DNA of 64,000 nucleotides from an uncultured Candidatus Saccharibacteria bacterium (lineage in GTDB: Bacteria; Patescibacteriota; Minisyncoccia; UBA6257; 2-01-FULL-56-20), in the NCBI GenBank assembly GCA_964505005.1, contig CAZDFQ010000002.1, forward strand, positions 92,310-156,309, in the 5' to 3' direction. A program made the position numbers and the translations under genes. Positions 6,257 to 58,447 of this stretch are shown here, one piece after another. Below the pieces are notes generated by a model. That model made no database searches, was not told the origin of the DNA, and was given only the letters and a program-made list of their open reading frames with translations. Positions within the stretch are counted from its first letter, which is position 1; each line of letters opens with the position of its first letter.

Positions 6257-6452
6257 GCCGGCCACAGGCAATCAGGCGTCTCGCCAGATGTTGTTTCAGA
6301 CGACTGGCGAGGCGCCATCTCTTTTATTGTTGCCAGAAAATAAAATTTGGTATAAGCTTCTAAACGCGATGCGAATGACGCGAATGCCATCCGAATGTCG
6401 CGAATAAAAATTTAATTCGTTCGCATTCGTAGTTATTTGTAGCATTTGTAGT

Positions 6453-6815
6453 ATGTTGACTATAAGATTACAGCGCATCGGCAAAAAACATCAGCCAAGC
6501 TACCGCCTGGTGGTGGCTGAAAAACGTTCCAAGCTCGGCGGTCCAGCCAAGGAAGATTTGGGTTTTTACAATCCTCTTCGGAAAGACGCCGGCTTTAAAG
6601 CCGAGCGGATTTTGTACTGGCTCGGCGTCGGCGCCAAGCCCTCGGCCATGGTCCACAATCTTTTGGTCAGACACAATATCCTTAAGGGACCGAAAATAAA
6701 AATTTCCATCAAGAAAAAATCGTCTTCAGAAGCAGCTCCGAAGCCGGCTGAAACCGCTGCCGAATCTTCGGTTGAAATGACGACCGAAATGTCGGCCGAC
6801 GCTTCAACTGCCTAA
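6453..6815 (+). CDS. rpsP: 30S ribosomal protein S16 with a C-terminal low-complexity extension
   Basis: MLTIRLQRIGKKHQPSYRLVVAEKRSKLGGPAKEDLGFYNP... Confidence 0.9.
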   Translation: MLTIRLQRIGKKHQPSYRLVVAEKRSKLGGPAKEDLGFYNPLRKDAGFKAERILYWLGVGAKPSAMVHNLLVRHNILKGPKIKISIKKKSSSEAAPKPAETAAESSVEMTTEMSADASTA

Positions 6816-7100
6816 TTCAATTTAATTTTTTGACAAATATTCTGCAATTTGTATAATCTTTTCATACTTTTCGGCTATTGATGCAAAGATATGCATAACT
6901 TAATTCGGATGGGCGCATTTGTAGTGCGCTATTTGGATGCATAGAAAGGTCGAAAGAAATTCAGCATCACTTGTACATTTGGCAGCGAGGCAACGCAAAA
7001 ATAACCAAACTTTTGTGATTGCCGAGCGAACCAAATGATGGAACGAAGTTCCATGATTTTTGTGGTGAGTTTGGACCACTAGAGTGAGCTTAGAGAATAA

Positions 7101-7700: not shown

Positions 7701-8570
7701 ATGTCTAGAAACTTTCGTGAGTTACTCGAGGCGAAGTGGTCGGAAGGGAAGTTCGTTTGCGTCGGACTCGACAGCGAGTTCGGGAAGATTCCCGAATCTG
7801 CTCGCCGTCCCGGCAACGAGCGCGACATCGATGTCGCCAACACCATCGTCGAGTTCAACCGCGCCATCGTGGAAGCGACCAAGGACATCGTCTGCGCCTA
7901 CAAGCCGAACATCGCGTTTTACGAGGCGCACGGCAGCGAGGGGCTCGCGGCCTTGCACCGCACCATCGTGGACATCCACATTCTCGCGCCGGATGTGCCG
8001 GTGATTCTCGACGCCAAGCGCGCGGACATCGGCAACACCAACAATGGATATTGCCAGATGGCGTTCGAGTGGCTTGGGGCGGATGCGATCACGGTGCATC
8101 CGTACTTCGGAGCCGATGCGCTCCAGCCGTTCCTCGACCGAGCGGATAAGGGCGTTATCGTGCTCTGTCGCACGTCCAACCCGGGTGCAGGCGAGTTCCA
8201 GAATCTGTCCGTGGGCGGCGAGCCGCTCTATCGCTTCGTGGCTCGTTACGTCGCAAGCGAGTGGTGGAACAGGAACGGCAACTGCGCGGTGGTCGTCGGC
8301 GCGACTTATCCCGAGGAGCTTCGGGAAGTCCGCGGCATCGTCGGCGACCTGCCGATTCTCATTCCGGGGGTCGGCTTCCAGCAGAAGGATGTGCCTCTCG
8401 AAGAGCAGGTGCGGCAGGTCGTTTCCGCCGGCAAGGACAGCCGCGGCTGGGGGATGATTATCAATTCCTCGCGCGGCATCATCTTTGCCTCCAAGGGGCC
8501 GGACTTTGCCGAGGCAGCCCGGCGCGAGGCAGGCAAACTCCACGAGCTCATCATCCGCTGCCTTGGCTAG
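7701..8570 (+). CDS. pyrF: Orotidine 5'-phosphate decarboxylase, type 2 (long form)
   Basis: VCVGLDSEF... and DAKRADIGNT (the DxKxxDIxxT active-site motif). About 289 aa, as in type 2 ODCases. GC3 is very high compared with flanking genes. The minus-strand ORF 7722-8618 is a GC shadow ORF. Confidence 0.8.
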   Translation: MSRNFRELLEAKWSEGKFVCVGLDSEFGKIPESARRPGNERDIDVANTIVEFNRAIVEATKDIVCAYKPNIAFYEAHGSEGLAALHRTIVDIHILAPDVPVILDAKRADIGNTNNGYCQMAFEWLGADAITVHPYFGADALQPFLDRADKGVIVLCRTSNPGAGEFQNLSVGGEPLYRFVARYVASEWWNRNGNCAVVVGATYPEELREVRGIVGDLPILIPGVGFQQKDVPLEEQVRQVVSAGKDSRGWGMIINSSRGIIFASKGPDFAEAARREAGKLHELIIRCLG

Positions 8571-9865: not shown

Positions 9866-10213
9866 TTACTGAGTAGCAAATTTATTATATAGCCAGCCGA
9901 AGACCCAGCCGAGGATAAATCCGAGAATCAGATTTTCGATAACAACTATCACCAGCCCTGTCCAGGAATAACTGAAAAACGGGTGAAAGCCGCCGAGCGT
10001 AGAAATCGTAAGGTAACCGATGCCAGTCAGAAGCGAAAACCCCATCGCCAGTAGCCAGGAGCCGGCGGCCACAATCGCTGCCGTATAGCCCAGCGCCTTA
10101 GGATTGAATTGCATATAGTTTTCATTTTTTGCGACCTTTCTGCTTTGAATATTTAAAAAACTCAATCTACTTCCTGTTTCAGTCGTTTCTCGGCTTCTTC
10201 TTTGGTATCGCAT
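9866..10213 (-). CDS. Hypothetical membrane protein (3 TM). The true start may be the internal Met near 10114.
   Basis: MQFNPKALGYTAAIVAAGSWLLAMGFSLLTGIGYLTISTLGGFHPFFSYSWTGLVIVVIENLILGFILGWVFGWLY. Confidence 0.4.
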   Translation of the reverse strand: MRYQRRSRETTETGSRLSFLNIQSRKVAKNENYMQFNPKALGYTAAIVAAGSWLLAMGFSLLTGIGYLTISTLGGFHPFFSYSWTGLVIVVIENLILGFILGWVFGWLYNKFATQ

Positions 10214-10397
10214 CTTCCGAAAACCCGGCCGGTGGTTTCCGGAAGAATCACATACTTATCTTTGATTTTTTAATCATAACATTCCTGCAGGCTGGCAGAT
10301 AGACAAGGCGCCTGCCAATGTGAAGTCCGCCACGAATTCGTTATGCCTAAGTCGGCTGTTATGCTATAGCACAACACTCGGTTGTTTATTGCGCCCC

Positions 10398-11093
10398 TCA
10401 TAACTCCTCGAGTTTTTTGGCTTGCCCGATGTCAATGTTGCCGATTCTCGTCCGCCGCAATTCTTGAAGCATTGCCGGAACGCCGAGTCGCCGGCCGATT
10501 TCTTCAGCCACCGCCCGAGCATAAGTTCCTTTTTCCGCTTTCATTTCGATTCGGAGAATAATTTGCTTCGGCCACTGGATTATTTTTAGAAGTTTTAGAT
10601 AGAAAATTTTCGTTTGGCGGAATCTCTGTTCAATTGGCAGTCCTCGGCGCGCGTATTTATAAAGGGGAACACCTTTGTGTTTTACAGCTGAATAGTGGGG
10701 GATAGGCAATTCGAGTTCACCCTCCATCTCTTTAAGAATTTTTTTGAGAAACTGAATATCCACTTTTTTTGCCTTTTTGTTATTCTCTAATTCGTTCGAA
10801 TTAGAGAAGATAACTTTCTCTTCTTCGATAATTTTCCCTTCCGGGTCGCCAGTATCAGTGCATCTGCCGAGAAGAACAGCCAGCCGATAGGTTTTCGGCA
10901 AACTGGCATATTCTTTCAGTTTTTTCGTCCCCTTGCCGACGCCGATTATCAGAAGGCCGGTGGCGAACGGGTCCAGGGTGCCGCTGTGCCCCATTTTTTT
11001 GATGCCTAATTTCTTTCTCAATTGCCGGATGACATCAAAAGAGCTTAGGCCTTTCGGTTTATCAATGAAAATTATTTCCGGCGGCTGTTCCAT
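10398..11093 (-). CDS. truB: tRNA pseudouridine(55) synthase TruB. It contains a 26-bp palindrome in-frame.
   Basis: IDKPKGLSSFDVIRQLRKKLGIKKMGHSGTLDPFATGLLIIGVGKGTKKL (TruB catalytic Asp motif) and PHYSAVKHKGVPLYKYARRG. Confidence 0.85.
   Translation of the reverse strand: MEQPPEIIFIDKPKGLSSFDVIRQLRKKLGIKKMGHSGTLDPFATGLLIIGVGKGTKKLKEYASLPKTYRLAVLLGRCTDTGDPEGKIIEEEKVIFSNSNELENNKKAKKVDIQFLKKILKEMEGELELPIPHYSAVKHKGVPLYKYARRGLPIEQRFRQTKIFYLKLLKIIQWPKQIILRIEMKAEKGTYARAVAEEIGRRLGVPAMLQELRRTRIGNIDIGQAKKLEEL
10783..10808. repeat. 26-bp near-perfect palindrome ttctctaattcg-tt-cgaattagagaa lying inside the truB reading frame
   Basis: The left half is the reverse complement of the right half, separated by a 2-nt centre. 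It encodes part of the SNSNELENNK segment of TruB. Confidence 0.6.
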
Positions 11094-11489
11094 TTATCTT
11101 ACTCTGGTTTTCTTATCCAAACGTTTAGCTTGATGCCCCGCCGGCGCGTTATTCTCGTTTTGGTGGGCAGGCAGGGCCGCCAAGTCCGCTGGCGTTCGTA
11201 AATCGTTTTTTCGGCAATAAAACGCCTCGGCGTCCGGAAAGCAGTTTTGCCCCTTTTGGTTCGTCTGGAAGAATAGTTTTTCATCGTTAAAGTAATTTTA
11301 TCAATTCTTCAGGTGACTACAAAATTTAGGGGTAAATTATTTTACCTTTCTTTATTTTTAGAAAAGGCGTCGGTTTATCGAATGGGCGTTGCCGCAGTAG
11401 CGGCAACGCCCTTCTTGCTTTTCAAGTTGTCTAAATCCGCTTTTTTTGTTACATTACGAAAACAGAGTTTTTACAATCCGCCAGCTGAA

Positions 11490-12833
11490 ATGGTTCTCAG
11501 TAAAAGAAAAAATTTAGACAAAAAAGCTCGTGTATTCGTGGCAATGTCCGGCGGCGTGGATTCGTCGGTCGCGGCTTGGCTGTTGCAAAAGCAGGGTTAT
11601 GATGTTATCGGCGTTTTTATGAAATGTGTCGGCCCCTCGACGGGGTTCGGGGTAGACTGTGCCGAGAGCGATGCCGAGGATGCCCGCCGGGTTGCTGAAA
11701 AATTAAGTATTCCTTTTTATGTTTGGGATTTTGAAGAGGAATACAAGCGCCGGGTGATGGATTATATGATTGACGGCTACCGGCAAGGGCTGACGCCGAA
11801 TCCGGATGTGATGTGTAACCGCGAAATTAAATTTGGGCTTTTTTTGGAGAGAGCGCTCGAAATGGGGGCGGATTATGTGGCAACAGGGCACTATGTGCGG
11901 AAACTTTGTTTTGCGAGAACCGGCGTCGCTCCGACTCCGGCGGTCGGAGCGCGCCTGCATCTCGGTTCTGCGGCTCGCTTACGGCGAGACCAAGCCCGCA
12001 GAACCTCCGATAGCTTCTCGCAAAACAAAGTTTCCTTTGGATTGGGTATTGCAAGGGATTTGAATAAGGACCAATCCTACTTCCTCTGGACTCTGAATCA
12101 GGAGCAGTTGAAGCCCTGCCTTTTTCCAATTGGCGATTATCTTAAATCCGAAGTTCGGGAAATCGCCCGTCAAGCCGGTTTGCCGACCGCCGACAAAAAG
12201 GATTCCCAGGGTATTTGTTTTTTGGGTAAGGTAACGCTTGATGAGTTTCTGAAGCAATATATTCCGGCGCGGCGCGGGGCGGTTTTAACGACTACCGGCC
12301 AGGAAATCGGCGAACATCAGGGTGCCCAGTTTTATACAATCGGACAAAGGCATATTTCGATCGCGAATCGCCAAGGGCAAATCGCCAATAGTCAGCCGCT
12401 CTATGTTGCCGAAAAAGATGTTGCAGCTAATATGCTGGTAGTCGCCGAAGGCGAGGACAATCCGATGCTCTATAAAGAGGAAGTTGAATTAAAGGATGTC
12501 AATTTTATCAGCCCAGAACATTCTAACATTCTGCAGAATGTTAGAATGTCAGTATCGGCTCGAGTTCGTTATCGCCAACCGTTGGTACCGGCAATCCTCT
12601 ATAAGCTAAAAGCTAAAAGCTATAAACTCGTTTTTGACCAGCCGGTCAAATTCGTGGCCCCGGGTCAGTCCGCGGTGTTTTACAAAAAGGGACAAGGGAC
12701 AAGGGACCCCGCACCAAAGCCCCGAAGGAGAACAAGTTCCCTACGGGGCAGGCAAGCTTGGTACGGGGCAGGCAAGAGAGAGGGAGAGTTCGAGCTGCTG
12801 GGCGGCGGAATAATAAAAACTGTTATGCTATAG
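11490..12833 (+). CDS. mnmA: tRNA-specific 2-thiouridylase MnmA, enlarged by two in-frame repeat insertions
   Basis: VFVAMSGGVDSSVAAWLL (PP-loop), ATGHYVR, NKDQSYFLW, KKDSQGICFLG and ELLGGGII. About 447 aa from the ATG at 11490, versus about 360 aa for the canonical protein. Upstream hairpin gggcgttgccgc-agta-gcggcaacgccc plus a U-run at 11384-11420. Confidence 0.85.
   Translation: MVLSKRKNLDKKARVFVAMSGGVDSSVAAWLLQKQGYDVIGVFMKCVGPSTGFGVDCAESDAEDARRVAEKLSIPFYVWDFEEEYKRRVMDYMIDGYRQGLTPNPDVMCNREIKFGLFLERALEMGADYVATGHYVRKLCFARTGVAPTPAVGARLHLGSAARLRRDQARRTSDSFSQNKVSFGLGIARDLNKDQSYFLWTLNQEQLKPCLFPIGDYLKSEVREIARQAGLPTADKKDSQGICFLGKVTLDEFLKQYIPARRGAVLTTTGQEIGEHQGAQFYTIGQRHISIANRQGQIANSQPLYVAEKDVAANMLVVAEGEDNPMLYKEEVELKDVNFISPEHSNILQNVRMSVSARVRYRQPLVPAILYKLKAKSYKLVFDQPVKFVAPGQSAVFYKKGQGTRDPAPKPRRRTSSLRGRQAWYGAGKREGEFELLGGGIIKTVML
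11899..12035. repeat. 137-bp palindromic element with perfect 21-bp terminal inverted repeats, inserted in-frame in mnmA
   Basis: Left IR ggaaactttgttttgcgagaa (11899-11919) is the exact reverse complement of the right IR ttctcgcaaaacaaagtttcc (12015-12035). The interior carries nested palindromes such as cgctccgac...gtcggagcg. It encodes a ~45-aa extra block between ATGHYVRK and GLGIARDLNKDQSYFL. Confidence 0.7.
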
Positions 12834-24137: not shown

Positions 24138-25468
24138 AGTTTCTAATCCGCGGCGGCCAGAAATTGAGCGGCGAAATCAACGTCAGCGGCGCCAAAAATT
24201 CCGTGCTCAAAGGAATGGCTGCCTCGGTTTTGTCAGCCAAGCCGGTTATCCTGGACAATGTGCCCTTAATTGAGGACGTTTTCCGGATGCGGGAATTACT
24301 GGAGCATCTCGGCGCTGAAGTGGCCATACCTGCCGGTAGACAGGGAGAAGGCGGCCCGCTTCGCCCGCCCGCTCCGACTCGGAATCGAGGCGAGCGAAGC
24401 GAGGCGAGCCGAACGCTTCGAATCAATCCCTCTTCAATCAAAAAAACCGAACTTAAAAACGAGATTGCTGAACGGCTCCGGGCTTCGATTGTTCTGGCTG
24501 GCCCGGTGCTCGCCCGTTTGGGAAAAGTAAGTTTTCCTCACCCGGGCGGCTGCGTTATCGGCAAAAGACCAATTGATGTTTTTTTGGCTGGCTGGCAGGC
24601 CATGGGCGCTAAGGTCCGGGAAAGCCAAGCTGGTTTTCTGGTTTCGGCCCGAAAATTAAAAGGCAAGGATTTTACTTTCCGCCTGGTCAGCGTTACCGGC
24701 ACGGAAACTTTGATGTTGACCGCGGCTTTGGCCTATGGCAAAACTGTTTTGCGGAATGCCGCGATGGAGCCCGAAATCCCTCACTTGGCGGAATTTCTTA
24801 ACGACTCCGGCGTGAAAATCTCCGGGGCCGGCACCCCGACCATTGAAATTATCGGCAGTAATGGCCGCCTGCTCCATCCCAAAAGTCCTTTTCAAGTCCT
24901 TAGTGACCGGATTGAAGCCGGCAGTTTTCTGATTCTGGGCGCGGCTTTGGGAAGAAAACTGAAAGTAGTTAACTGCATCCCGGAACATCTGACGGCTTTA
25001 ATCGCCGCGCTGCAGGAAGCTGGTGTCGGACTGGAGATTGGTCAGGACTGGATTTCTGTCAGTCAGCCGCGAAAATTAAAAGCCGTGGATGTCCGGACTC
25101 ATGAATACCCCGGCTTCCCAACTGACCTTCAGGCGCCTTGGGCGGTGCTGATGACTCAAGCCCAGGGAGACAGCTTGATTTTCGAAACGATTTTTGAAGG
25201 CCGATTTTCTTACATCGAAGAACTAAAGAGAATGGGCGCGAAAATTTTGACGCTTGACGAGCACCGCATTTTGGTCAAAGGCCCGGCTCATCTTCGCGGC
25301 CGGGAAATTGAAAGCCCGGACTTGCGGGCTGGCTTGGCTTTTGTCATTGCGGCTTTGCTCGCCAAAGGAGAATCAGTAATCAACAACATTTATCAAATCG
25401 ACCGCGGCTACGAAAAAATCGACGAGCGGCTGAAAAATTTAGGCGCGGACATTTCTCGTCTCAGCTGA
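24134..25468 (+). CDS. murA: UDP-N-acetylglucosamine 1-carboxyvinyltransferase MurA, carrying an in-frame ~28-aa repeat-derived insertion
   Basis: MKFLIRGGQKLSGEINVSGAKNSVLK...FPHPGGCVIGKRPIDVFL (catalytic Cys loop) ...LRAGLAFVIAAL. Confidence 0.85.
   Translation: MKFLIRGGQKLSGEINVSGAKNSVLKGMAASVLSAKPVILDNVPLIEDVFRMRELLEHLGAEVAIPAGRQGEGGPLRPPAPTRNRGERSEASRTLRINPSSIKKTELKNEIAERLRASIVLAGPVLARLGKVSFPHPGGCVIGKRPIDVFLAGWQAMGAKVRESQAGFLVSARKLKGKDFTFRLVSVTGTETLMLTAALAYGKTVLRNAAMEPEIPHLAEFLNDSGVKISGAGTPTIEIIGSNGRLLHPKSPFQVLSDRIEAGSFLILGAALGRKLKVVNCIPEHLTALIAALQEAGVGLEIGQDWISVSQPRKLKAVDVRTHEYPGFPTDLQAPWAVLMTQAQGDSLIFETIFEGRFSYIEELKRMGAKILTLDEHRILVKGPAHLRGREIESPDLRAGLAFVIAALLAKGESVINNIYQIDRGYEKIDERLKNLGADISRLS
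24341..24425. repeat. GC-rich palindromic insertion inside murA, encoding QGEGGPLRPPAPTRNRGERSEASRTLRI
   Basis: cgcttcgcccgcccgctccgactcggaatcgaggcgagcgaagcg forms a stem (cgcttcgc/gcgaagcg). It shares cgcccgcccgc with the 50613 element family and cgctccgactc with the mnmA insert. MurA homologs have about 20 residues here; this one has about 50. Confidence 0.55.
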
Positions 25469-25631: not shown

Positions 25632-26642
25632 TTGATGTTCACCAGACAAATCGGCATTGATTTAGGTACGGCTAATACCGTGGTTTTTGTGCCTGGCAAA
25701 GGGTTCATTATCAACGAGCCGACCATCGTGGCCTTGCGCAAGCCGGACAATTCTGTTCTGGCGGTCGGCGTTGAAGCCAAAGAGATGCTCGGTCGCACGC
25801 CCGAAGAAATTACGGCTTACAAACCTCTCAAAGACGGCGTCATTGCTGATTATTACATCACTAAGGCGCTCCTTACTTATTTCATTTCCAAAGCCATTGG
25901 TCGGCTGAATTTTTTCAAACCTGATGTGATTGTTTCTGTCCCAGCAGGTGTGACCCAAACTGAGCGCCGAGCCGTCATCAATGCGACTTTGGAAGCCGGC
26001 GCCCGGAATGCTTTCATTGTTCGCGAACCAGTTTTGGCGGCTTTGGGCGCGGGTATCCCCATCAATGCCCGGTCCGGCCATATGGTGGTCAACATCGGCG
26101 GCGGCACTTCTGAAGTAACGGTCATTGCCCTCGGCAGCATCGTTGCCTGGACCAGTTTGCGAGTGGCTGGCAATAAATTCGACCAGGCCATCGCCGATTA
26201 TGTAAAGAAAAAATATTCTTTAGCTATCGGCGAACAGACCGCCGAACAGATAAAAATCGAAATCGGCGCCGCCTTGCCGACCAAGGAAAGGATGGAATAT
26301 CAATTCCGCGGTCGCAACTTAATTACCGGCCTGCCCAAAGACATGATTATTAATGGCAATGAAATCGCCGAAGCCCTTAATCCTTTCTTAACGGAAATCG
26401 TCGGTTCAGTGCAGACGGTTTTTAATGTCACTCCGCCGGAACTGGTGGCTGACATTATGGAAAAGGGGATTATTCTTTCCGGCGGCAGCGCCCAACTCCA
26501 TTATTTGCCGGAATTTTTCGAAAGATACTTGGGGGTTTCCACCTATGTTGCCGAAGACCCGCTCTTCTGCGTGGCCAAAGGTACTGGCCTGATTCTCGAG
26601 CATCTGGATAAGTATAAGCAGACGCTTTTAAATAAAAGATAA
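25632..26642 (+). CDS. mreB: Rod shape-determining protein MreB
   Basis: IGIDLGTANTVVFVPGKGFIINEPTIVAL; actin-like ATPase. Confidence 0.9.
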   Translation: MMFTRQIGIDLGTANTVVFVPGKGFIINEPTIVALRKPDNSVLAVGVEAKEMLGRTPEEITAYKPLKDGVIADYYITKALLTYFISKAIGRLNFFKPDVIVSVPAGVTQTERRAVINATLEAGARNAFIVREPVLAALGAGIPINARSGHMVVNIGGGTSEVTVIALGSIVAWTSLRVAGNKFDQAIADYVKKKYSLAIGEQTAEQIKIEIGAALPTKERMEYQFRGRNLITGLPKDMIINGNEIAEALNPFLTEIVGSVQTVFNVTPPELVADIMEKGIILSGGSAQLHYLPEFFERYLGVSTYVAEDPLFCVAKGTGLILEHLDKYKQTLLNKR

Positions 26643-26757
26643 AATCTTAAATCCAAAGCTTAAATGTCAAATCAAATCCAAAATCCCAATGACAAAAAAT
26701 TTGGATTTTGGGCTTGAGGCTTGATTTGAAATTTGGATTTTGATATTCGGATTTTCA
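26643..26757. repeat. AT-rich nested-palindrome MITE-like element (aaatccaaa / tttggattt family), copy 1
   Basis: About 85% identical to 34322-34435. Internal dyads ccaaaatcccaa...tttggattttggg. Confidence 0.6.
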
Positions 26758-26773
26758 TTAGAAATTTAGTTTT

Positions 26774-28180: not shown

Positions 28181-28297
28181 GAATCTCTAATTTCTAAATC
28201 CTAATTTCTAAACAATTTCAAATATCAAAATTCAAAATGGTTTGAGATTTGATATTTGGATTTGTTTAGGATTTAGAGATTAGGATTTAGGATTTTT
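28181..28297. repeat. AT-rich nested palindrome (taggattt/aaatccta family): outer arms aatctctaatttctaaatcctaatttctaaacaa / ttgtttaggatttagagattaggatttaggatt and an inner dyad caaatatcaaa/tttgatatttg
   Basis: Reverse complementarity of the arms seen directly. Related shorter copies at 32095-32160, 32525-32610 and 43715-43745. Confidence 0.55.
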
Positions 28298-28302
28298 AAA
28301 GT

Positions 28303-29358: not shown

Positions 29359-29477
29359 AGATATAATATGAATACTACGAATCTTTTTATGAATACTACG
29401 AATCTTTTAACGAATGATACTAATTAAACTTATTTGTAGCATTCGTATGTCATTCGCAGCATTCGCATTATGTTTTT

Positions 29478-32089: not shown

Positions 32090-32160
32090 TTCGTTGCCGT
32101 TCTTATTCAATTTTCTTTTAAAATCCTAAATTCTAAATCCTAAACTCTAAATAAATTCCA

Positions 32161-32523
32161 ATGGCCGAAATTCAAAATTCTAAACAATACGACTTAGAAA
32201 AACGGACCTTAGAATTTGCAAGAAATGTAAGATTGTTTATTAAAAAATTACCGCGGACGTTATCAAATACAAAAGACACAAAACAAGCCATCAGGTCATC
32301 CGGTTCCATCGGCGCAAATTATATTGAAGCCAACGAATCTTTAAGCAAAAAAGATTTCTCTATGAGAATTAAGATTTGTCGTAAAGAGGCAAAAGAGACA
32401 GAATACTGGTTGCAGCTTTTGGATACCGGAGGAGAAGTCGGATTAGAAAACGAAAAGGAGAATCTTATAAAAGAGGCTATTGAACTAAGAAAGATTTTCG
32501 GCTCTATCTTGAAAAAATCATAA
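32161..32523 (+). CDS. Four-helix-bundle protein (23S rRNA intervening-sequence protein family)
   Basis: LEFARNVRLFIKKLP...SIGANYIEANESLSKKDF...EYWLQLL matches TIGR02436. It is flanked by AT-rich inverted repeats. Confidence 0.75.
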   Translation: MAEIQNSKQYDLEKRTLEFARNVRLFIKKLPRTLSNTKDTKQAIRSSGSIGANYIEANESLSKKDFSMRIKICRKEAKETEYWLQLLDTGGEVGLENEKENLIKEAIELRKIFGSILKKS

Positions 32524-32608
32524 TAGGTTTGCTAAAAGTTTTGGTCATTTGAATTTAGGATTTTGAATTTATTTAGGATTTAGATATTAGGATTTAGGAT
32601 TTATTTTT

Positions 32609-34321
32609 ATGCGCCTCCCCGTACCTATCCCCCAGCTTAAAGACAAATTGCTTCAGGAGAATCTTATTTCTCCAGAACGTTTCGACGCCCTGCTCGCCGA
32701 AGTTGAAAGGAAGAAAGAAAACATTCTCGATGTTTTGGTTTCAGAAAACATCGTTGAAAGAAATTACATAAATGAATTCGTCGCTTCCGCGCTGGGAGTT
32801 GAGCTGGCTAATTTGTCAGCAAAAAAAATTGATGAAAATGTCGTCAAGCTGTTGCCCGAAGACCTGGCCCGGCAACGCCGCGTTATTTTATTCGGCAAAG
32901 AGCCGGATGGCGCGCTTGAGGTGGCGATGGCTGAGCCGAGCGACCTTGAAACCATTGAATTTTTGGAAGAACGCCTGAAAGCAAAAGTTAAACCGTATTT
33001 AGCAACCCCAGAAGATTTAAACCGCAGCTTTTCGATTTACGGCTTGGAATTAACTCAAAATTTCAAAAAAATTATTGAAGAGAATATCCAGGAATCGCTC
33101 CGCAGCCGCACTAAGACCATTGAAGAAGCGGCGGCCCAGTTGCCGATTGTTGCTATCGTTGACAATCTTTTATCTTACGCTACTTCCTTGCGCGCTTCTG
33201 ACATTCATCTGGAAATTTTGGAAGAAGATACGCTCGTCAGATACCGCATTGATGGCATCCTTTATGAGATTTTAAGAATTCCCAAAGAAGTTCATCCGGC
33301 TTTGGTAGCGCGGATTAAAATTTTAAGCGGTCTTAAAATCGACGAACATTATAAACCTCAGGACGGTCGATTCCGTCACAGTGTTGCTAATCAGGTTGTC
33401 GATGTCCGGGTCTCGGTGATGCCGACTTTTTACGGCGAGAAAATAGAGATGCGGCTGCTGGAATCAACCGAGAGACCTTTGTCGCTTGAAGAATTGGGGA
33501 TGCTTGAGGAAGTTGAAAAAATTGTTTCGGAAAATTTGAAAAAGGCCTATGGGATGATTTTAGTTTGCGGGCCGACCGGTTCCGGAAAGACAACGACTCT
33601 TTACGCTATGATGAATATTTTGAATAAACCGACGGTGAACATCGTGACCATCGAAGACCCGATTGAGTACAACATCCGCTATGTCAATCAGACGCAGATT
33701 AATCCGGCGGCCGGCATTACTTTTGCTTCGGGGTTGCGCTCTATTTTACGACAAGACCCCAATATAATTATGGTCGGTGAAGTCAGGGACAGCGAGACGG
33801 CCGGCATAGCGGTGCAGTCGGCACTGACCGGGCACCTGATTCTTTCTTCGCTCCATACTAATGACGCGCCAACGGCCGTACCTCGGCTTTTTGACTTGGA
33901 GGTGCCGCCGTTTTTGGTGGCGGCCACTCTTAACTTAGTGGTGGCTCAGCGTTTGGTCAGAAAAATCTGCACTCAATGCATTTACTCATACAAGATAACG
34001 CCGGCCATCAAAGAGTCAGTCGAAGAACAGCTTGGAGTTTTAGGCATAAAAGGCGGAGAAACCATCCCCACCATTCTTTTTAAAGGTAAAGGATGTCCGG
34101 CTTGCAATTTTGCCGGCTATCGGGGCCGACTCGGCATCTTCGAAATTTTAGAGATTAATGAATCAATCAAAAAAACGATAATTGACCCGCGCTTTAGCTT
34201 AGAAACCGTCCGCCAGGCCGTCAGAGAAAACAGCTTCAAAACGATGTTCGAAGACGGTTTATTGAAGGTTCAACTGGGATTGACTACAATTGAAGAAGTA
34301 CTGAGAGTGATAAGAGAATAA
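32609..34321 (+). CDS. pilB: Type IV pilus assembly ATPase PilB (GspE family)
   Basis: N-terminal T2SSE_N domain. LVCGPTGSGKTTTLYAMM Walker A; Asp/His boxes; C-terminal tetracysteine CPACNFAGYRGRLG. Confidence 0.9.
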   Translation: MRLPVPIPQLKDKLLQENLISPERFDALLAEVERKKENILDVLVSENIVERNYINEFVASALGVELANLSAKKIDENVVKLLPEDLARQRRVILFGKEPDGALEVAMAEPSDLETIEFLEERLKAKVKPYLATPEDLNRSFSIYGLELTQNFKKIIEENIQESLRSRTKTIEEAAAQLPIVAIVDNLLSYATSLRASDIHLEILEEDTLVRYRIDGILYEILRIPKEVHPALVARIKILSGLKIDEHYKPQDGRFRHSVANQVVDVRVSVMPTFYGEKIEMRLLESTERPLSLEELGMLEEVEKIVSENLKKAYGMILVCGPTGSGKTTTLYAMMNILNKPTVNIVTIEDPIEYNIRYVNQTQINPAAGITFASGLRSILRQDPNIIMVGEVRDSETAGIAVQSALTGHLILSSLHTNDAPTAVPRLFDLEVPPFLVAATLNLVVAQRLVRKICTQCIYSYKITPAIKESVEEQLGVLGIKGGETIPTILFKGKGCPACNFAGYRGRLGIFEILEINESIKKTIIDPRFSLETVRQAVRENSFKTMFEDGLLKVQLGLTTIEEVLRVIRE

Positions 34322-34435
34322 AAATCCAAATGTCAAAATCCAAATTCCAAATCAAATCCAAAATCCCAATGGCAAAAATTTGGATTTTGAACTTCGAGCT
34401 TGATTTGACATTTGAGTTTTAGATTTAGGATTTTA
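34322..34435. repeat. AT-rich nested-palindrome MITE-like element, copy 2
   Basis: See 26643-26757. Confidence 0.6.
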
Positions 34436-36166: not shown

Positions 36167-36336
36167 CCGAAGAATCTAGAATCTAGAATTTAGAAAATAT
36201 GAAACTTCGTTTCATCAATTGGTTCGCTCGGCGAAAATAAATGTATAATTCATTTACTTTCTCCTCGCTGCCAATTGTAGAATCTAGAATTTGAAAATTG
36301 GTAAAATATGTAAGACGGTAGCAGTGGCGATAAAAA

Positions 36337-40277: not shown

Positions 40278-40970
40278 TTAGGATTGTTTGGGTTGCTTAT
40301 AAAATTTCTTCCCAATCTCTTCAAACGCCTGAGCAAGAGTCTTTTTATCCCGACTGTTGATTTTTTTAAGCACAAATTCGCCCGCTTTCATTCTGAAAGC
40401 CGCTGATTCACGCAGATTTTTACGCTGATTTATGCTGATATTATCCGCGTTTATCTGCGTTTCTAATCCGCGTTTATCGGCGTTCCGGCGGATACCTATC
40501 CGCAGTCGCCAGAAATTTTTCGTTTTAAGTTTCCGAATGACCGATTCTACTCCTTGATGTCCTGCCGAGCTCCGGCCGAAGGAAATCTTATATTTGCCTA
40601 ATTCGATATCTGAGTCGTCATGAACTATTAAAACTTCTTGCGGCTGGAGGTGATATTTTTTTAAAGTTTTGTCAACAAAATTTCCCGATTCATTCATATG
40701 GGTTCCGGCTTTTAGCAGTTTAAATTTATGAAATTTCGTTTCCTCAATTAGTTCGCCCCGCCCGCCTGAGTTGCTCAGGCAAGTCGGGCGGGTCGTCGAA
40801 AACAAACTGGTGTTTGCTTTCTTCTCGCTGCCGATTGGAAAATTTAAGAGAGGATTTTTACTTAGATAATCGACAGCCAAAAACCCAACATTATGGTAGG
40901 TGCCTTCGTACCTTTTTCCAGGATTGCCCAGGCCAATGATGATTTTAATTTTAGAAAGCTCCTTAAACAT
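40278..40970 (-). CDS. pth: Peptidyl-tRNA hydrolase, carrying an in-frame repeat-element insertion
   Basis: IIIGLGNPGKRYEGTYHNVGFLAVDYL...KFKLLKAGTHMNESGNFV...LIVHDDSDIELGKYKISFGRSSAGHQGVESVI. 230 aa versus about 190 aa for the canonical protein. Confidence 0.8.
   Translation of the reverse strand: MFKELSKIKIIIGLGNPGKRYEGTYHNVGFLAVDYLSKNPLLNFPIGSEKKANTSLFSTTRPTCLSNSGGRGELIEETKFHKFKLLKAGTHMNESGNFVDKTLKKYHLQPQEVLIVHDDSDIELGKYKISFGRSSAGHQGVESVIRKLKTKNFWRLRIGIRRNADKRGLETQINADNISINQRKNLRESAAFRMKAGEFVLKKINSRDKKTLAQAFEEIGKKFYKQPKQS
40745..40840. repeat. Copy of the cccgcccgcctgagttgctcaggcaagtcgggcggg-core element, inserted in-frame in pth
   Basis: About 85% identical over ~95 bp to the intergenic copy at 50613-50730, including the ...tttgctttcttctcgctgccgattgg right arm. 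Confidence 0.7.
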
Positions 40971-41189
40971 GATGTCAATCTGCGGATGAAATGCGAATTA
41001 GGCGAATCAGGAGGCTAAGTGAACATAATTTACATTCGCAGTATTCGCACAAAGATTCGCATCATTCGCATTATGTCAAGCGGCTCGACCGATGCGAATG
41101 ACCCGAATTATACACGAATGACACGAATAGATTAAAAATGTGATACAGCCCTTGAATTCTCTATTTCTATACTATACAATACCCCATTA

Positions 41190-43110: not shown

Positions 43111-43289
43111 AAATAGCCCCCTAAATCAATTTATATTCGCAGCATTCGCATCTATTCGCCCGCCCGCCTGAGTTGCTCAGGCAAGTCGGGCAGGTAGATT
43201 CGCATTATATTCAAGCCGCTTGACATAATGCGAATGATGCGAATCATATGCGAATGTCGCGAAAAACCGGATTATGATAGATTAAAATT

Positions 43290-46275: not shown

Positions 46276-46417
46276 ATGAAATCCTGAAATGGGGTATATA
46301 AATTCGTAGCATTCGCATCCATTCGCAGATTAGCATTATATTCAAGCCGCTTAACCATAATGCGAATGACCCGAATTATATATGCGAATGATGCGAAAAA
46401 TAATTAAGATTAAGATT

Positions 46418-50594: not shown

Positions 50595-50612
50595 TCGGAT
50601 GTGCCTATTCGT

Positions 50613-50730
50613 ATGAAGCTCCGCTTCATCAATCGGTTCGGCCCGCCCGCCTGAGTTGTTCAGGCAAGTCGGGCGGGTCGGCGAAAATAAATGCTTCGCA
50701 TTTACTTTCTCCTCGCTGCCGATTGTAAGG
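50613..50730. repeat. Full-length intergenic copy of the GC-core palindromic element (left arm atgaagctccgcttcat hairpin, core cccgcccgcctgagttgttcaggcaagtcgggcggg, right arm ...tttactttctcctcgctgccgattgtag)
   Basis: Related copies: 40745-40840 (in pth), 43160-43200 (core only), 19787-19870 (core with a nested insertion), 36199-36290 and 56233-56314 (arms without the core). Confidence 0.7.
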
Positions 50731-56231: not shown

Positions 56232-56423
56232 TATGAAGCTTCGCTTCATCATTTGGTTCACCCGGCAATCACAAGAATCTTTTTGTTCTTGAGTTGCCTC
56301 GTTGCCAAATGTAGAATTAAATATAATGCGAATGGCGCGAATTCTTATGCGAATGTTGCGAATATTTTAATAAACCCCTCTGCGGTTATTCGTATCATTC
56401 GCACACATTCGTAAATTGGCATT

Positions 56424-57442: not shown

Positions 57443-58447
57443 TTGAGAATTATGGAAAACGATATTCAAAAACCTGAAGAAAAGAGAAAAAATGGCTTCT
57501 TGCTGCCGCTAAGCATTCTGCTTTCAACGTTTATCCTTGCCGGTGCCTGGATTTACACGACTGGTTTGAAAACAGCCAAAGTCGGGCAGCGGCCTTTGGC
57601 GGCGGCCAATGTCCAGCAATCTCTGCTGGAAGGGAAATTATTGCCTTCTCAAGGAATTGTTCTACCGGTTCGCTGGGGCGATTCGGGTGCGAAGCTCGTA
57701 AAAGCCGGCGTAATTGATGGTGGGAAATTCGAATCGCTCTACAATCGGCAGGGAGAAGAAAGCAAACGAAGTTTGTTTTCGGCGAGCGAACCGATTGATG
57801 AAGCGGAAGCTTCATACGCGAATCGTTCGGTTTCTCTCAATGAGCTCAGGCGATTGCTCTACGGAGAGGATAATGGCAATTTAAAAATTACCCGGGAAAA
57901 TTCCGGAATCATCGTCAATCTTCTGTGGGCTTTAGGTCTGGGTAACAAAAACGCGATTTTGGAGAGGGGGCCGATGGCTGACCCGCGTTATATTACTGCT
58001 AATTTCGCTTCCACCGGCGGCTGGACAATTGCCAAAGGCAGCGCGATGGAACATTACAGCAAACATGAGTTTGTTACTTTAACGCCAGAACAGCAGGCAT
58101 TGGTAGAAAGAGTCAGTCAAAATATCTATCGGCCGTGTTGCGACAATGCCACTTATTTTCCGGACTGCAACCACGGGATGGCCATGCTCGGCCTGCTCGA
58201 GCTGATGGCTTCGCAAGGCGTTTCCGAGGAGGAAATGTACCGGGCAGCGCTTAAAGTAAATTCGTTTTGGTTTCCGGATGTTTACCTGACGATTGCCAAA
58301 TATTTTGAGTCAAAGGGGATTGATTGGAGCCAGACGGATTCCAAAGAGGTCTTGAGCTATAATTTTTCGAGTGCCAGCGGCTACCAGCGGATTTTGAGCC
58401 AGGTCGCGCCGCCGGAAATCAATTCTAGCAGCGGTTGCGGCGTCTAA
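57443..58447 (+). CDS. Membrane-anchored Cys-rich extracytoplasmic protein of unknown family, paralog A (YRPCCDN...DCNHG...C-terminal GCGV)
   Basis: TM LLPLSILLSTFILAGAWIY. Homologous over about 250 aa to the C-terminal half of 60946-62436. Confidence 0.5.
   Translation: MRIMENDIQKPEEKRKNGFLLPLSILLSTFILAGAWIYTTGLKTAKVGQRPLAAANVQQSLLEGKLLPSQGIVLPVRWGDSGAKLVKAGVIDGGKFESLYNRQGEESKRSLFSASEPIDEAEASYANRSVSLNELRRLLYGEDNGNLKITRENSGIIVNLLWALGLGNKNAILERGPMADPRYITANFASTGGWTIAKGSAMEHYSKHEFVTLTPEQQALVERVSQNIYRPCCDNATYFPDCNHGMAMLGLLELMASQGVSEEEMYRAALKVNSFWFPDVYLTIAKYFESKGIDWSQTDSKEVLSYNFSSASGYQRILSQVAPPEINSSSGCGV

Follow-up and report, generated by a model that had tools for sequence, protein, structure and literature searches.

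The Rickettsia palindromic elements (RPE; Ogata et al. 2000, 2002) are repeats of about 150 bp that are found in-frame in housekeeping genes, as described in PMC10969869. They are the closest known analogue of the element analyzed here, which lies as a palindromic segment in the mnmA gene of a 64-kb stretch of DNA (the window, that is, the whole stretch that was analyzed). RPEs and the present element are both palindromic repeats of ~100-150 bp that occur in intergenic DNA and in-frame in unrelated housekeeping genes, and both are translated as extra segments that are compatible with the protein fold and common to orthologs across species (PMC10969869). A palindromic element of RPE-like size is found here in mnmA in many lineages, in uvrA at one locus (L189) and, among the matches listed, at about 24 intergenic sites. 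The two are likened by description, as analogues and not as members of one family: the host phylum (CPR) is unrelated; the present element is a heavily covarying three-way junction with an outer stem specific to each copy; it is read in at least two or three frames, whereas RPEs are described as coding for one conserved peptide in a single frame; and copies within coding sequences are a minority of the present family (3 of 24 among the matches listed).

Several other families of bacterial repeats invite comparison. REPs are 20-40 bp long and carry a GTAG/CGTC tag (PMC3733652). Like the REP/BIME, ERIC, Correia and BOX/RUP/SPRITE repeats, for which roles in mRNA stability and termination have been proposed, the present element is dispersed, mostly intergenic, hairpin-forming and often located just 3' of genes. 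It differs from REP/BIME in its length of 125-165 nt, in its branched form and in being defined by loop motifs and not by stem sequence; CGTC is present at the foot of one inner hairpin (P2, see below) in some copies only, and no RAYT-type gene was seen. Bacterial MITEs are likewise small, non-coding and repeated, with terminal inverted complementarity and occasional in-frame fusions. However, MITEs are recognized by conserved terminal inverted repeats, and the terminal arms of the present element are unconserved, differing in every copy; no target-site duplication was found, nor was a parent IS among the ORFs read around the two copies of L144.

Integron attC and other structure-defined sites in single-stranded DNA have stems of free sequence and a conserved structure. 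The present element resembles attC in its Watson-Crick-only pairing, its few conserved unpaired bases and its strand specificity, but the family comes without cassette arrays, R'/R'' GTTRRRY boxes or integrase context, and its copies adjoin or lie inside housekeeping genes. Mitochondrial byp/GC clusters and the T4 gene 60 element are also GC-rich hairpins inside protein-coding genes. The ribosome skips over those elements, which need not be in frame; the copies described here are open and in phase.

The palindromic segment of mnmA

The features of the locus in the window are as follows.

11490-12833, + strand: mnmA, tRNA 2-thiouridine(34) synthase, the host gene (PDB 2DER and Pfam matches)
11899-11919, + strand: 5' arm of the outer stem P1, copy-specific in the family (perfect complement of 12015-12035)
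11919-11922, + strand: ACCG junction motif between P1 and P2, nearly invariant (31-sequence alignment)
11922-11955, + strand: P2 hairpin, made up of GGCG, a bulged T, a 10-bp stem, the loop and the return strand (fold and covariation)
11935-11943, + strand: conserved loop motif of P2, CTCCGGCGG, with family consensus CUCCAGCGG (fold and alignment)
11957-12014, + strand: bulged hairpin P3, with base (A)TCTCGG...CCTCCGATAG (fold, covariation and 31-copy alignment)
11974-11988, + strand: apical hairpin of P3 (fold)
11988-11995, + strand: conserved 3' bulge of P3, GACCAAGC (motif invariant or nearly so across 31 copies)
12015-12035, + strand: 3' arm of P1 (complement of the 5' arm, and fold)

The host gene was identified by its match to PDB 2DER (E = 1.4e-86) and to Pfam PF03054, PF20259 and PF20258 (HUP, PRC-barrel and C-terminal barrel domains). 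Translation probably begins with the ATG at 11490; a start at 11382 is implied by P0001, a 483-aa database product that matches at 100%. The segment at 11899-12035 lies in-frame between the motifs ATGHYVR and NKDQSYF and leaves the frame open, as had been described in the original prediction. The inverted repeats reported there are also exact in coordinates and sequence: GGAAACTTTGTTTTGCGAGAA at 11899-11919 is the perfect 21-nt reverse complement of 12015-12035. With up to three mismatches allowed, the arm sequence occurs only at these two places in the 64 kb (0.01 expected; none of 100 shuffles reached two), and the predicted terminal repeat thus does not recur in the window beyond its own two arms, because the outer stem is specific to each copy, as shown below. 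The element has a GC content of 61%, compared to 49% in the remainder of mnmA and 46% in the window.

The segment is 137 nt long, which is not a multiple of 3, and as delimited it therefore cannot be the inserted unit. Relative to the shortest MnmA orthologs the net excess is 42 residues (54 versus 12 between the two motifs); the extra segment is real, and the proposed size of ~45 added residues is corrected accordingly. E. coli MnmA has 16 residues in this interval and not ~14, as had been supposed. No direct repeat is visible in the sequence that flanks the mnmA copy (...TATGTGC / element / TTTGGAT...); the insertion is old and comes without an empty site from a close relative.

The interior is itself palindromic, as had been claimed. 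The RNA fold of positions 11889-12045 has a free energy of -86.3 kcal/mol (z = -8.5) and none of 200 shuffled sequences was equally stable. In this fold the 21-bp outer stem P1 encloses two inner hairpins, P2 and the bulged P3. P2 is the cgctccgac/gtcggagcg palindrome pointed out earlier. The related motif cgctccgactc was thought to be shared with an insertion in murA, but it has 3 matches in the window with at most one mismatch versus 0.8 expected, a number equaled in 5 of 100 shuffles. The murA insert itself (24330-24420) received no score with either of the two covariance models described below and was rejected as a member of the family, as were two other mnmA inserts.

The interval between GHY and KDQSYF is highly variable in length. 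It spans 25-81 residues, motifs included, in 81 Patescibacteria loci, and the stretch between the motifs ranges from 12 to 105 residues in 120 MnmA homologs, all of which are from Patescibacteria wherever the source is named (Liptonbacteria, Wolfebacteria, Jorgensenbacteria, Paceibacterota). The interval holds many unrelated inserts. Several of these are strong hairpins (e.g., L014 at -68.7 kcal/mol), and others are AT-rich, low-complexity and non-folding (e.g., L019 at -12 kcal/mol). MnmA thus has a hot spot here that is permissive to insertion. In the AlphaFold model residues ~141-180 have pLDDT values of 43-52 and lie between strands E136-142 and E181-186, while the remaining MnmA is confidently folded. 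Part of RKLCFAR, an extension of the first of these strands, is encoded by the 5' arm of P1. The ~40 encoded residues are therefore predicted to form a disordered loop at the tip of a beta-hairpin that leaves the fold undisturbed.

Orthologous copies and their reading frames

At least 28 of the 120 MnmA homologs contain a segment of 54-68 residues with the peptide signature ...TG..PA....DQARRxSE(S/T)F.... Once the insert is set aside, they share only 60-74% identity with each other and with the query. The DNA of nine such orthologs was examined (L001, L003, L012, L065, L082-L085 and L148), and all but one have the same three-way junction, with free energies of -58 to -100 kcal/mol over the GHY-to-KDQSYF interval. 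In the exception, L082, the sequence is recognizable but the fold is lost (-32 kcal/mol) and mnmA is intact, from which it follows that the element can decay.

Comparison to the closest ortholog, L001, illustrates how the structure has been preserved. P1 differs by a single compensatory change of U-A to C-G, and P3 is the same except for 3 nt in a loop; the stem sequence of P2 is wholly different and its pairing is retained. Perfect arms are thus accounted for by maintained pairing and not by youth. Identity within the element follows that of its flanks (0.84 versus 0.65-0.71 for the window and L001; 0.51 versus 0.63 for the window and L003, the most distant), as vertical descent predicts. The insertion had been proposed to be recent on the basis of its perfect repeats, and a same-length segment in orthologs from unrelated lineages had been named beforehand as the observation that would speak against this. 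The homolog comparison found just such segments, homologous and of similar length, at the same position in many Parcubacteria MnmA proteins of 60-74% identity. These comparisons show the mnmA copy to be old and, as far as sequences can tell, vertically inherited. On a neighbor-joining tree of MnmA the presence and absence of the element requires ~17 changes, so repeated gain at the hot spot may also apply and is possible on these sequences. One early gain followed by many losses or replacements appears to fit best with the frame, site and divergence data. In L018 the element is found at the mnmA site in the opposite orientation, and this inverted copy could have arisen through recombination between the P1 arms.

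The encoded peptide is less constant than the nucleotide sequence. When three-frame translations were compared, other MnmA homologs were found to use another frame, or a mixture of frames, for the element (P0073-type, SARSSGEPQ; P0065/L012-type, ETKL...RDVPQ), and the peptide profile of the alternative frame is weak, with 33% column identity. The uvrA copy in L189 reads the conserved motifs as LQR/TKP, where mnmA reads them as PA/DQA. Copies in coding sequences therefore use two or three frames at the least, and the different frame in uvrA places the conservation at the nucleotide level. In a set of 10 mnmA genes synonymous change is saturated in the flanks, where the third bases of invariant codons have a mean pairwise identity of 0.46; the motif bases of these genes hardly vary, even at the third codon positions of xCU, GCG and CAA. 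All of the copies in coding sequences are open and in phase, including three that were found without an open reading frame criterion. Most likely, then, the element is translated through and not removed.

Three-way-junction elements dispersed in Parcubacteria

With filters off, covariance model R1 matched the window only at the mnmA copy, at 133 bits on the sense strand versus 29 bits on the antisense strand, and a model built from 31 copies agrees. Among the matches listed, 28 further copies were found outside mnmA by covariance model, most of them intergenic. Across 85 loci centered on mnmA, the matches outside that gene were two in L005, one in L002 and one in L029, all intergenic; those in L005 lie directly after efp and upstream of murI. 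Metagenome contigs were then scanned, blind to strand and context, with the pattern ACCG N12-13 TCCNGCGG N38-58 GAYCAAGC, which yielded at least 120 loci, and the model confirmed at least 24 elements in 22 of these. As a negative control the identical pattern was applied to viral contigs, where none of 28 matches passed the model; these are chance matches.

Among the 24 matches listed, two occupy the mnmA site already described (L148, L181), one is in-frame in uvrA, two abut the 5' edge of ORFs for secreted proteins and the remainder are intergenic. Nine of the intergenic copies listed start 0-24 nt past the stop codon of a co-oriented gene. Orientation could be assigned for 21 of the non-mnmA copies among the matches listed; 18 of these are sense and 3 antisense (binomial p = 0.0015). 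In L099 two copies lie head-to-head between convergent genes, each of them sense to its own gene. Two copies occur within 1.3-21 kb of each other in L093, L099, L144 and L005, compared to one in the 64-kb window. The covariance model found no second copy in ~168 kb of sequence from genomes with the mnmA copy.

There is little sign of mobility genes or of insertion boundaries around these copies. The two copies in L144 form an inverted pair that follows clpP and tyrS, and tyrS is the gene between them. No transposase or mobility gene was found nearby, where the ORFs are membrane pyrophosphatase-like, clpP and tyrS, and no other candidate mobility gene was seen adjoining copies. A tblastx search with both flanks of 22 non-mnmA sites (counting the adjacent pair of L099 as one) revealed no target-site duplication or usable empty site; comparators were obtained only for the efp-mnmA spacer of L005, and these are too diverged to define boundaries. 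Rfam 15 has no overlap with the mnmA copy even at E values up to 10 and none with the two copies of L144, and at gathering score it identifies only 4 tRNAs in the whole window. No description of this element family was found in the literature. The family thus consists of palindromic three-way-junction elements of about 125-165 nt that are absent from Rfam and are dispersed in Parcubacteria (Paceibacteria-type Patescibacteria/CPR).

The pairing in these elements was evaluated in two alignments. When 8 mnmA copies were aligned with MAFFT alone, RNAalifold predicted 44 pairs, 38 of which have compensatory double changes. The 31-copy alignment was fitted to the covariance model, and the independent MAFFT result concurs with it. 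In the 31 copies 93.5% of pair cells are canonical, versus 56.6% in shuffled alignments and 35-46% when the partners are slid by 1-3 columns. Of the 44 pairs 42 covary, with a score of 0.888 versus 0.20, and none of 500 shuffles reached 0.888. P2 has 7 of 8 pairs covarying and 96.7% of its cells paired, and in P3 (helices 4-6) 19 of 20 pairs covary. P1 covaries as well and differs in every copy, even between the two of L005, and often reaches well past the model (L127, L115, L161, L005). The arms had been interpreted as terminal inverted repeats, a role that calls for a conserved transposase binding end and does not agree with this pattern.

The stems are free in sequence and four unpaired motifs are near-invariant: ACCG, CUCCAGCGG, GACCAAGC and CUCCGAGA. 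In terms of the 31-copy structure the conserved unpaired sites are ACCG at the P1/P2 junction and the P2 loop CU-CCAGC-GG, and those of P3 are its base, CUCUCG...CUCCGAGAG, and the 3' bulge. With the conserved U-G at the closing position of the P2 loop left out, the 1,297 pair cells contain only 18 G-U versus 29 A-C combinations. Pairing is in essence confined to the Watson-Crick type, with symmetry between the two strands. Base pairing is maintained almost wholly through Watson-Crick compensatory change. Judged by these alignments, the element is conserved as a nucleic-acid structure, a three-way junction, and not as protein.

Two functional assignments were considered for the family and rejected. 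A U-tract after the stem, the sign of an intrinsic terminator, is not consistently present across copies. Mimicry of a tRNA anticodon for autoregulation by MnmA does not suit a family whose copies mostly have nothing to do with mnmA, and the loops are unlike the anticodon loops of Glu, Lys and Gln tRNAs.

Origin and maintenance of the element

The structural and evolutionary description of the element can be given with high confidence; as to mechanism, we moderately prefer selfish palindromic DNA to a functional RNA module. What we consider the probable explanation is a dispersed three-way-junction element with a single, old entry into mnmA that is kept as a folded strand and is selfish palindromic DNA resembling RPE/REP. 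The element would have entered mnmA once, early in the clade, at the surface-exposed beta-hairpin tip that lies between GHY and KDQSYF, and would be translated there as a tolerated, disordered loop of ~40 residues. The selected or self-maintaining unit would be the folded single strand and not the peptide, with a putative trans-acting protein reading the conserved loops on that strand. The stems may be kept perfect by intra-strand templated correction of quasi-palindromes, by selection or by both, and in mnmA the element would ride as a passenger at a site that tolerates it.

The evidence on the level at which the structure acts points in two directions. Helices that are selected as RNA normally tolerate many G-U pairs, and the arms of DNA palindromes can stay identical via intra-strand template switching at quasi-palindromes. 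The scarcity of G-U and the Watson-Crick-only pairing therefore favor a hairpin at the DNA level. On the other hand, the strong preference for the sense orientation, the location directly behind stop codons and the preservation of the loops with no second copy in ~168 kb favor a role at the RNA or host level. With no second copy, conservation of the loops in situ is not easily ascribed to an active selfish family, and a host function fits better; the 18 to 3 ratio of orientations among the matches listed is also compatible with an RNA-level role. Gradual templated correction leaves unexplained why P2 is wholly different between the window and L001 when P1 and P3 are nearly identical.

These same observations make it possible, if on balance unlikely, that the element is a cis-acting RNA module of benefit to the host. 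It would fold in the transcript, with loops that bind a protein or RNase and an outer stem of 21-35 bp as an RNase III-type substrate, and would set 3' ends, stabilize upstream mRNAs or release its core of ~100 nt as a small RNA. Within mnmA it would act as a regulator of that gene's own mRNA. Nucleotide-level purifying selection in a vertically inherited copy argues for such a module, as do the predominance of sense copies, the nine intergenic copies (among the matches listed) that closely follow a co-oriented stop codon, the head-to-head pair of L099 and the difference of 133 versus 29 bits between strands. Against it, G-U is rarer than A-C, a uniform U-tract after the stem and a match to Rfam are lacking, some copies are antisense (that of L018 even at the mnmA site) and L082 has lost the fold with mnmA intact; moreover, the short spacers of compact genomes may alone put any 140-nt element near a stop codon. 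A broader proposal is that of a new, Parcubacteria-specific functional structured nucleic acid, under long purifying selection even in-frame in mnmA and uvrA. This could be an RNA module, with a two-hairpin core of ~100 nt freed by cleavage of the outer stem and acting via three invariant loops, or a strand-specific single-stranded DNA site for a recombinase or replication factor. We regard it as doubtful.

The other explanations fare considerably worse. Removal of the element, either at the RNA level through excision and religation or through bypassing by the ribosome as in byp and T4 gene 60, would leave mature MnmA without the insert, and a very stable GC-rich hairpin in a gene of lower GC does resemble the byp/GC-cluster elements. 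It is nevertheless very improbable, since skipped elements need no frame and all coding-sequence copies keep theirs; matching take-off and landing codons are absent at the flanks and a match to a ribozyme or intron family is lacking. Scarcely credible is the model of the original prediction, a recent MITE with transposase-type terminal inverted repeats. Its MITE-like portrayal does hold for a small non-coding hairpin of a dispersed repeat family that keeps the frame open, but not for conserved terminal repeats. The perfect 21-bp arms, the elevated GC content and the dispersal of the family are as this model expects; orthologous copies whose divergence matches that of their flanks, arms that are copy-specific and covarying, the lack of a visible target-site duplication and the absence of a second copy in the window are not. 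Selection on the peptide as a sub-domain of MnmA of ~45 residues, with the palindromy of the DNA incidental, is as hard to believe. MnmA copies do have the common peptide motifs PA...DQARRxSE(S/T)F, but the underlying nucleotide motifs are also present between genes and, in another frame, in uvrA, the frame changes among MnmA homologs contradict it, the stems alter amino acids freely while pairing is kept, and the segment is predicted to be disordered.

If this account is true, a well-supported structured element without an Rfam entry would join the little-known non-coding repertoire of CPR, and selfish palindromes in protein-coding genes, known mainly from Rickettsia, would extend to another lineage with reduced genomes. 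Here the nucleic-acid structure would visibly be the conserved thing, being read in several frames and fixed at synonymous sites. The locus also illustrates that perfect inverted arms are no proof of recent insertion, and that the GHY-KDQSYF loop of MnmA accommodates from 12 to more than 68 residues. Such inserts inflate the lengths of CPR proteins and create spurious "hypothetical" ORFs in the spacers between genes.

In-frame inserts in mnmA and a putative murA

Apart from its hairpin element, which belongs to the family of dispersed three-way-junction hairpin repeats in Parcubacteria, the mnmA gene of the window carries two further in-frame inserts, and another lies in the gene originally named murA:

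12516-12551, perfect palindrome of ~16 nt (acattctaacattctg c agaatgttagaatgt), C-terminal half of mnmA
12690-12785, second GC-rich insert (QGTRDPAPKPRRRTSSLRGRQAWYGAGKREG), 3' end of mnmA, ahead of the conserved LLGGGII C-terminus
24330-24420, GC-rich insert, putative murA

The palindrome codes for EHSNILQNVRMS, about 4 residues of which are absent from E. coli MnmA, and folds at -20.9 kcal/mol (z = -6.1). The RNA structure of the GC-rich insert at the 3' end is weak (z = -1.0), and AlphaFold gives the residues that it encodes pLDDT values of 40-54. Neither of these mnmA inserts was recognized as a family member by the two covariance models (the second of them built from 31 copies). The murA insert forms a hairpin of moderate stability (-47.1 kcal/mol, z = -2.6). 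The original prediction had linked it to the mnmA element through a common motif; the 11-mer is indeed present in both, but such sharing is at chance level and the murA insert has no match to the family covariance models.

The deposited start of P0001, the 483-aa database product of this mnmA, lies 36 codons 5' of the ATG at 11490 (window 11382-11489). This start is probably too far upstream, since homology to other MnmA sequences begins just past that ATG (MVLSKRKNLDKKARVFVAMSGGVDS).

Other repeats in the window

A separate repeat family is present in the window, the copies of which begin with UAUGAAgCUUCGcUUCAUCAAUuGGUUCG:

6971-7059 (-), UAUGAAgCUUCGcUUCAUCAAUuGGUUCG repeat
36198-36282 (+), UAUGAAgCUUCGcUUCAUCAAUuGGUUCG repeat
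40727-40806 (+), UAUGAAgCUUCGcUUCAUCAAUuGGUUCG repeat
50612-50691 (+), UAUGAAgCUUCGcUUCAUCAAUuGGUUCG repeat
56232-56316 (+), UAUGAAgCUUCGcUUCAUCAAUuGGUUCG repeat
57764-57805 (-), UAUGAAgCUUCGcUUCAUCAAUuGGUUCG repeat

Two of the copies, at 40727-40806 and 50612-50691, have a bulged, GC-rich hairpin (GCCCGCCUGAG...CUCAGGCAAGUCGGGCGGG) directly after the leader, and this hairpin also occurs at 43129-43208 without the UAUGAAgCUUCGcUUCAUCAAUuGGUUCG leader. The z-scores of the folds range from -2.7 to -5.9. Partial matches of this hairpin to the P3 part of the covariance model (the second, bulged inner hairpin) are weak and non-significant (E 0.4-0.7).

Many spacers of the window are crowded with short repeats that fall into two types. 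These are GCGAATG/CATTCGC and TTTAGGATT/AATCCTAAA, and they frequently form inverted pairs. Examples fall in two lists:

First list: 6354-6456, 29440-29473, 41028-41130, 43129-43266, 46296-46403, 56322-56368
Second list: 26640-26760, 28185-28300, 32115-32604, 34317-34435

Within proteins of relatives, repeats of these kinds show up as odd stretches of peptide, such as ANNESQTNKR...IRY and IQNSKIKNQN...KFKI in MnmA.

Family copies at other loci and inserts in MnmA homologues

Two other loci, L099 and L189, carry members of the hairpin family:

L099 2571-2722 (+), family member
L099 2744-2880 (-), family member
L189 7351-10104 (-), uvrA with a family element at 8424-8558

The L099 pair lies head-to-head between convergent genes, 21 nt apart. 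Each copy has the orientation of its own gene and follows that gene at a distance of 13-24 nt. Beside its family element the L189 UvrA has additional low-complexity inserts, STRIDTQIDSDKHQRKSEFDQSKF and SRINSDKTRTNSDVIGVNQSRNQSKSG, which look like translated spacer-type repeats.

The orthologous MnmA of L001 (mnmA at 10001-11413) has ANGESHTNKRIRGKLVNSRQIRY as an insert within its C-terminal domain. This peptide closely resembles SANNESQTNKRMKEFANSERIRY, carried by other homologues at the GHY-KDQSYF site, the stretch between two conserved motifs where the mnmA element sits (homologues listed beside L001 for this comparison: P0078, P0055, P0100, P0120). Judged by this likeness of sequence, one repeat type occupies two different positions within the MnmA protein family. 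A different conserved hairpin insert is found at the GHY-KDQSYF site in L014 (4502-4651), and likewise in P0005, P0085 and P0108; it encodes ...GVSGATPKSYPSQ... and folds at -68.7 kcal/mol with a stem of ~18 bp, which suggests that a second structured family uses this hot spot of mnmA.
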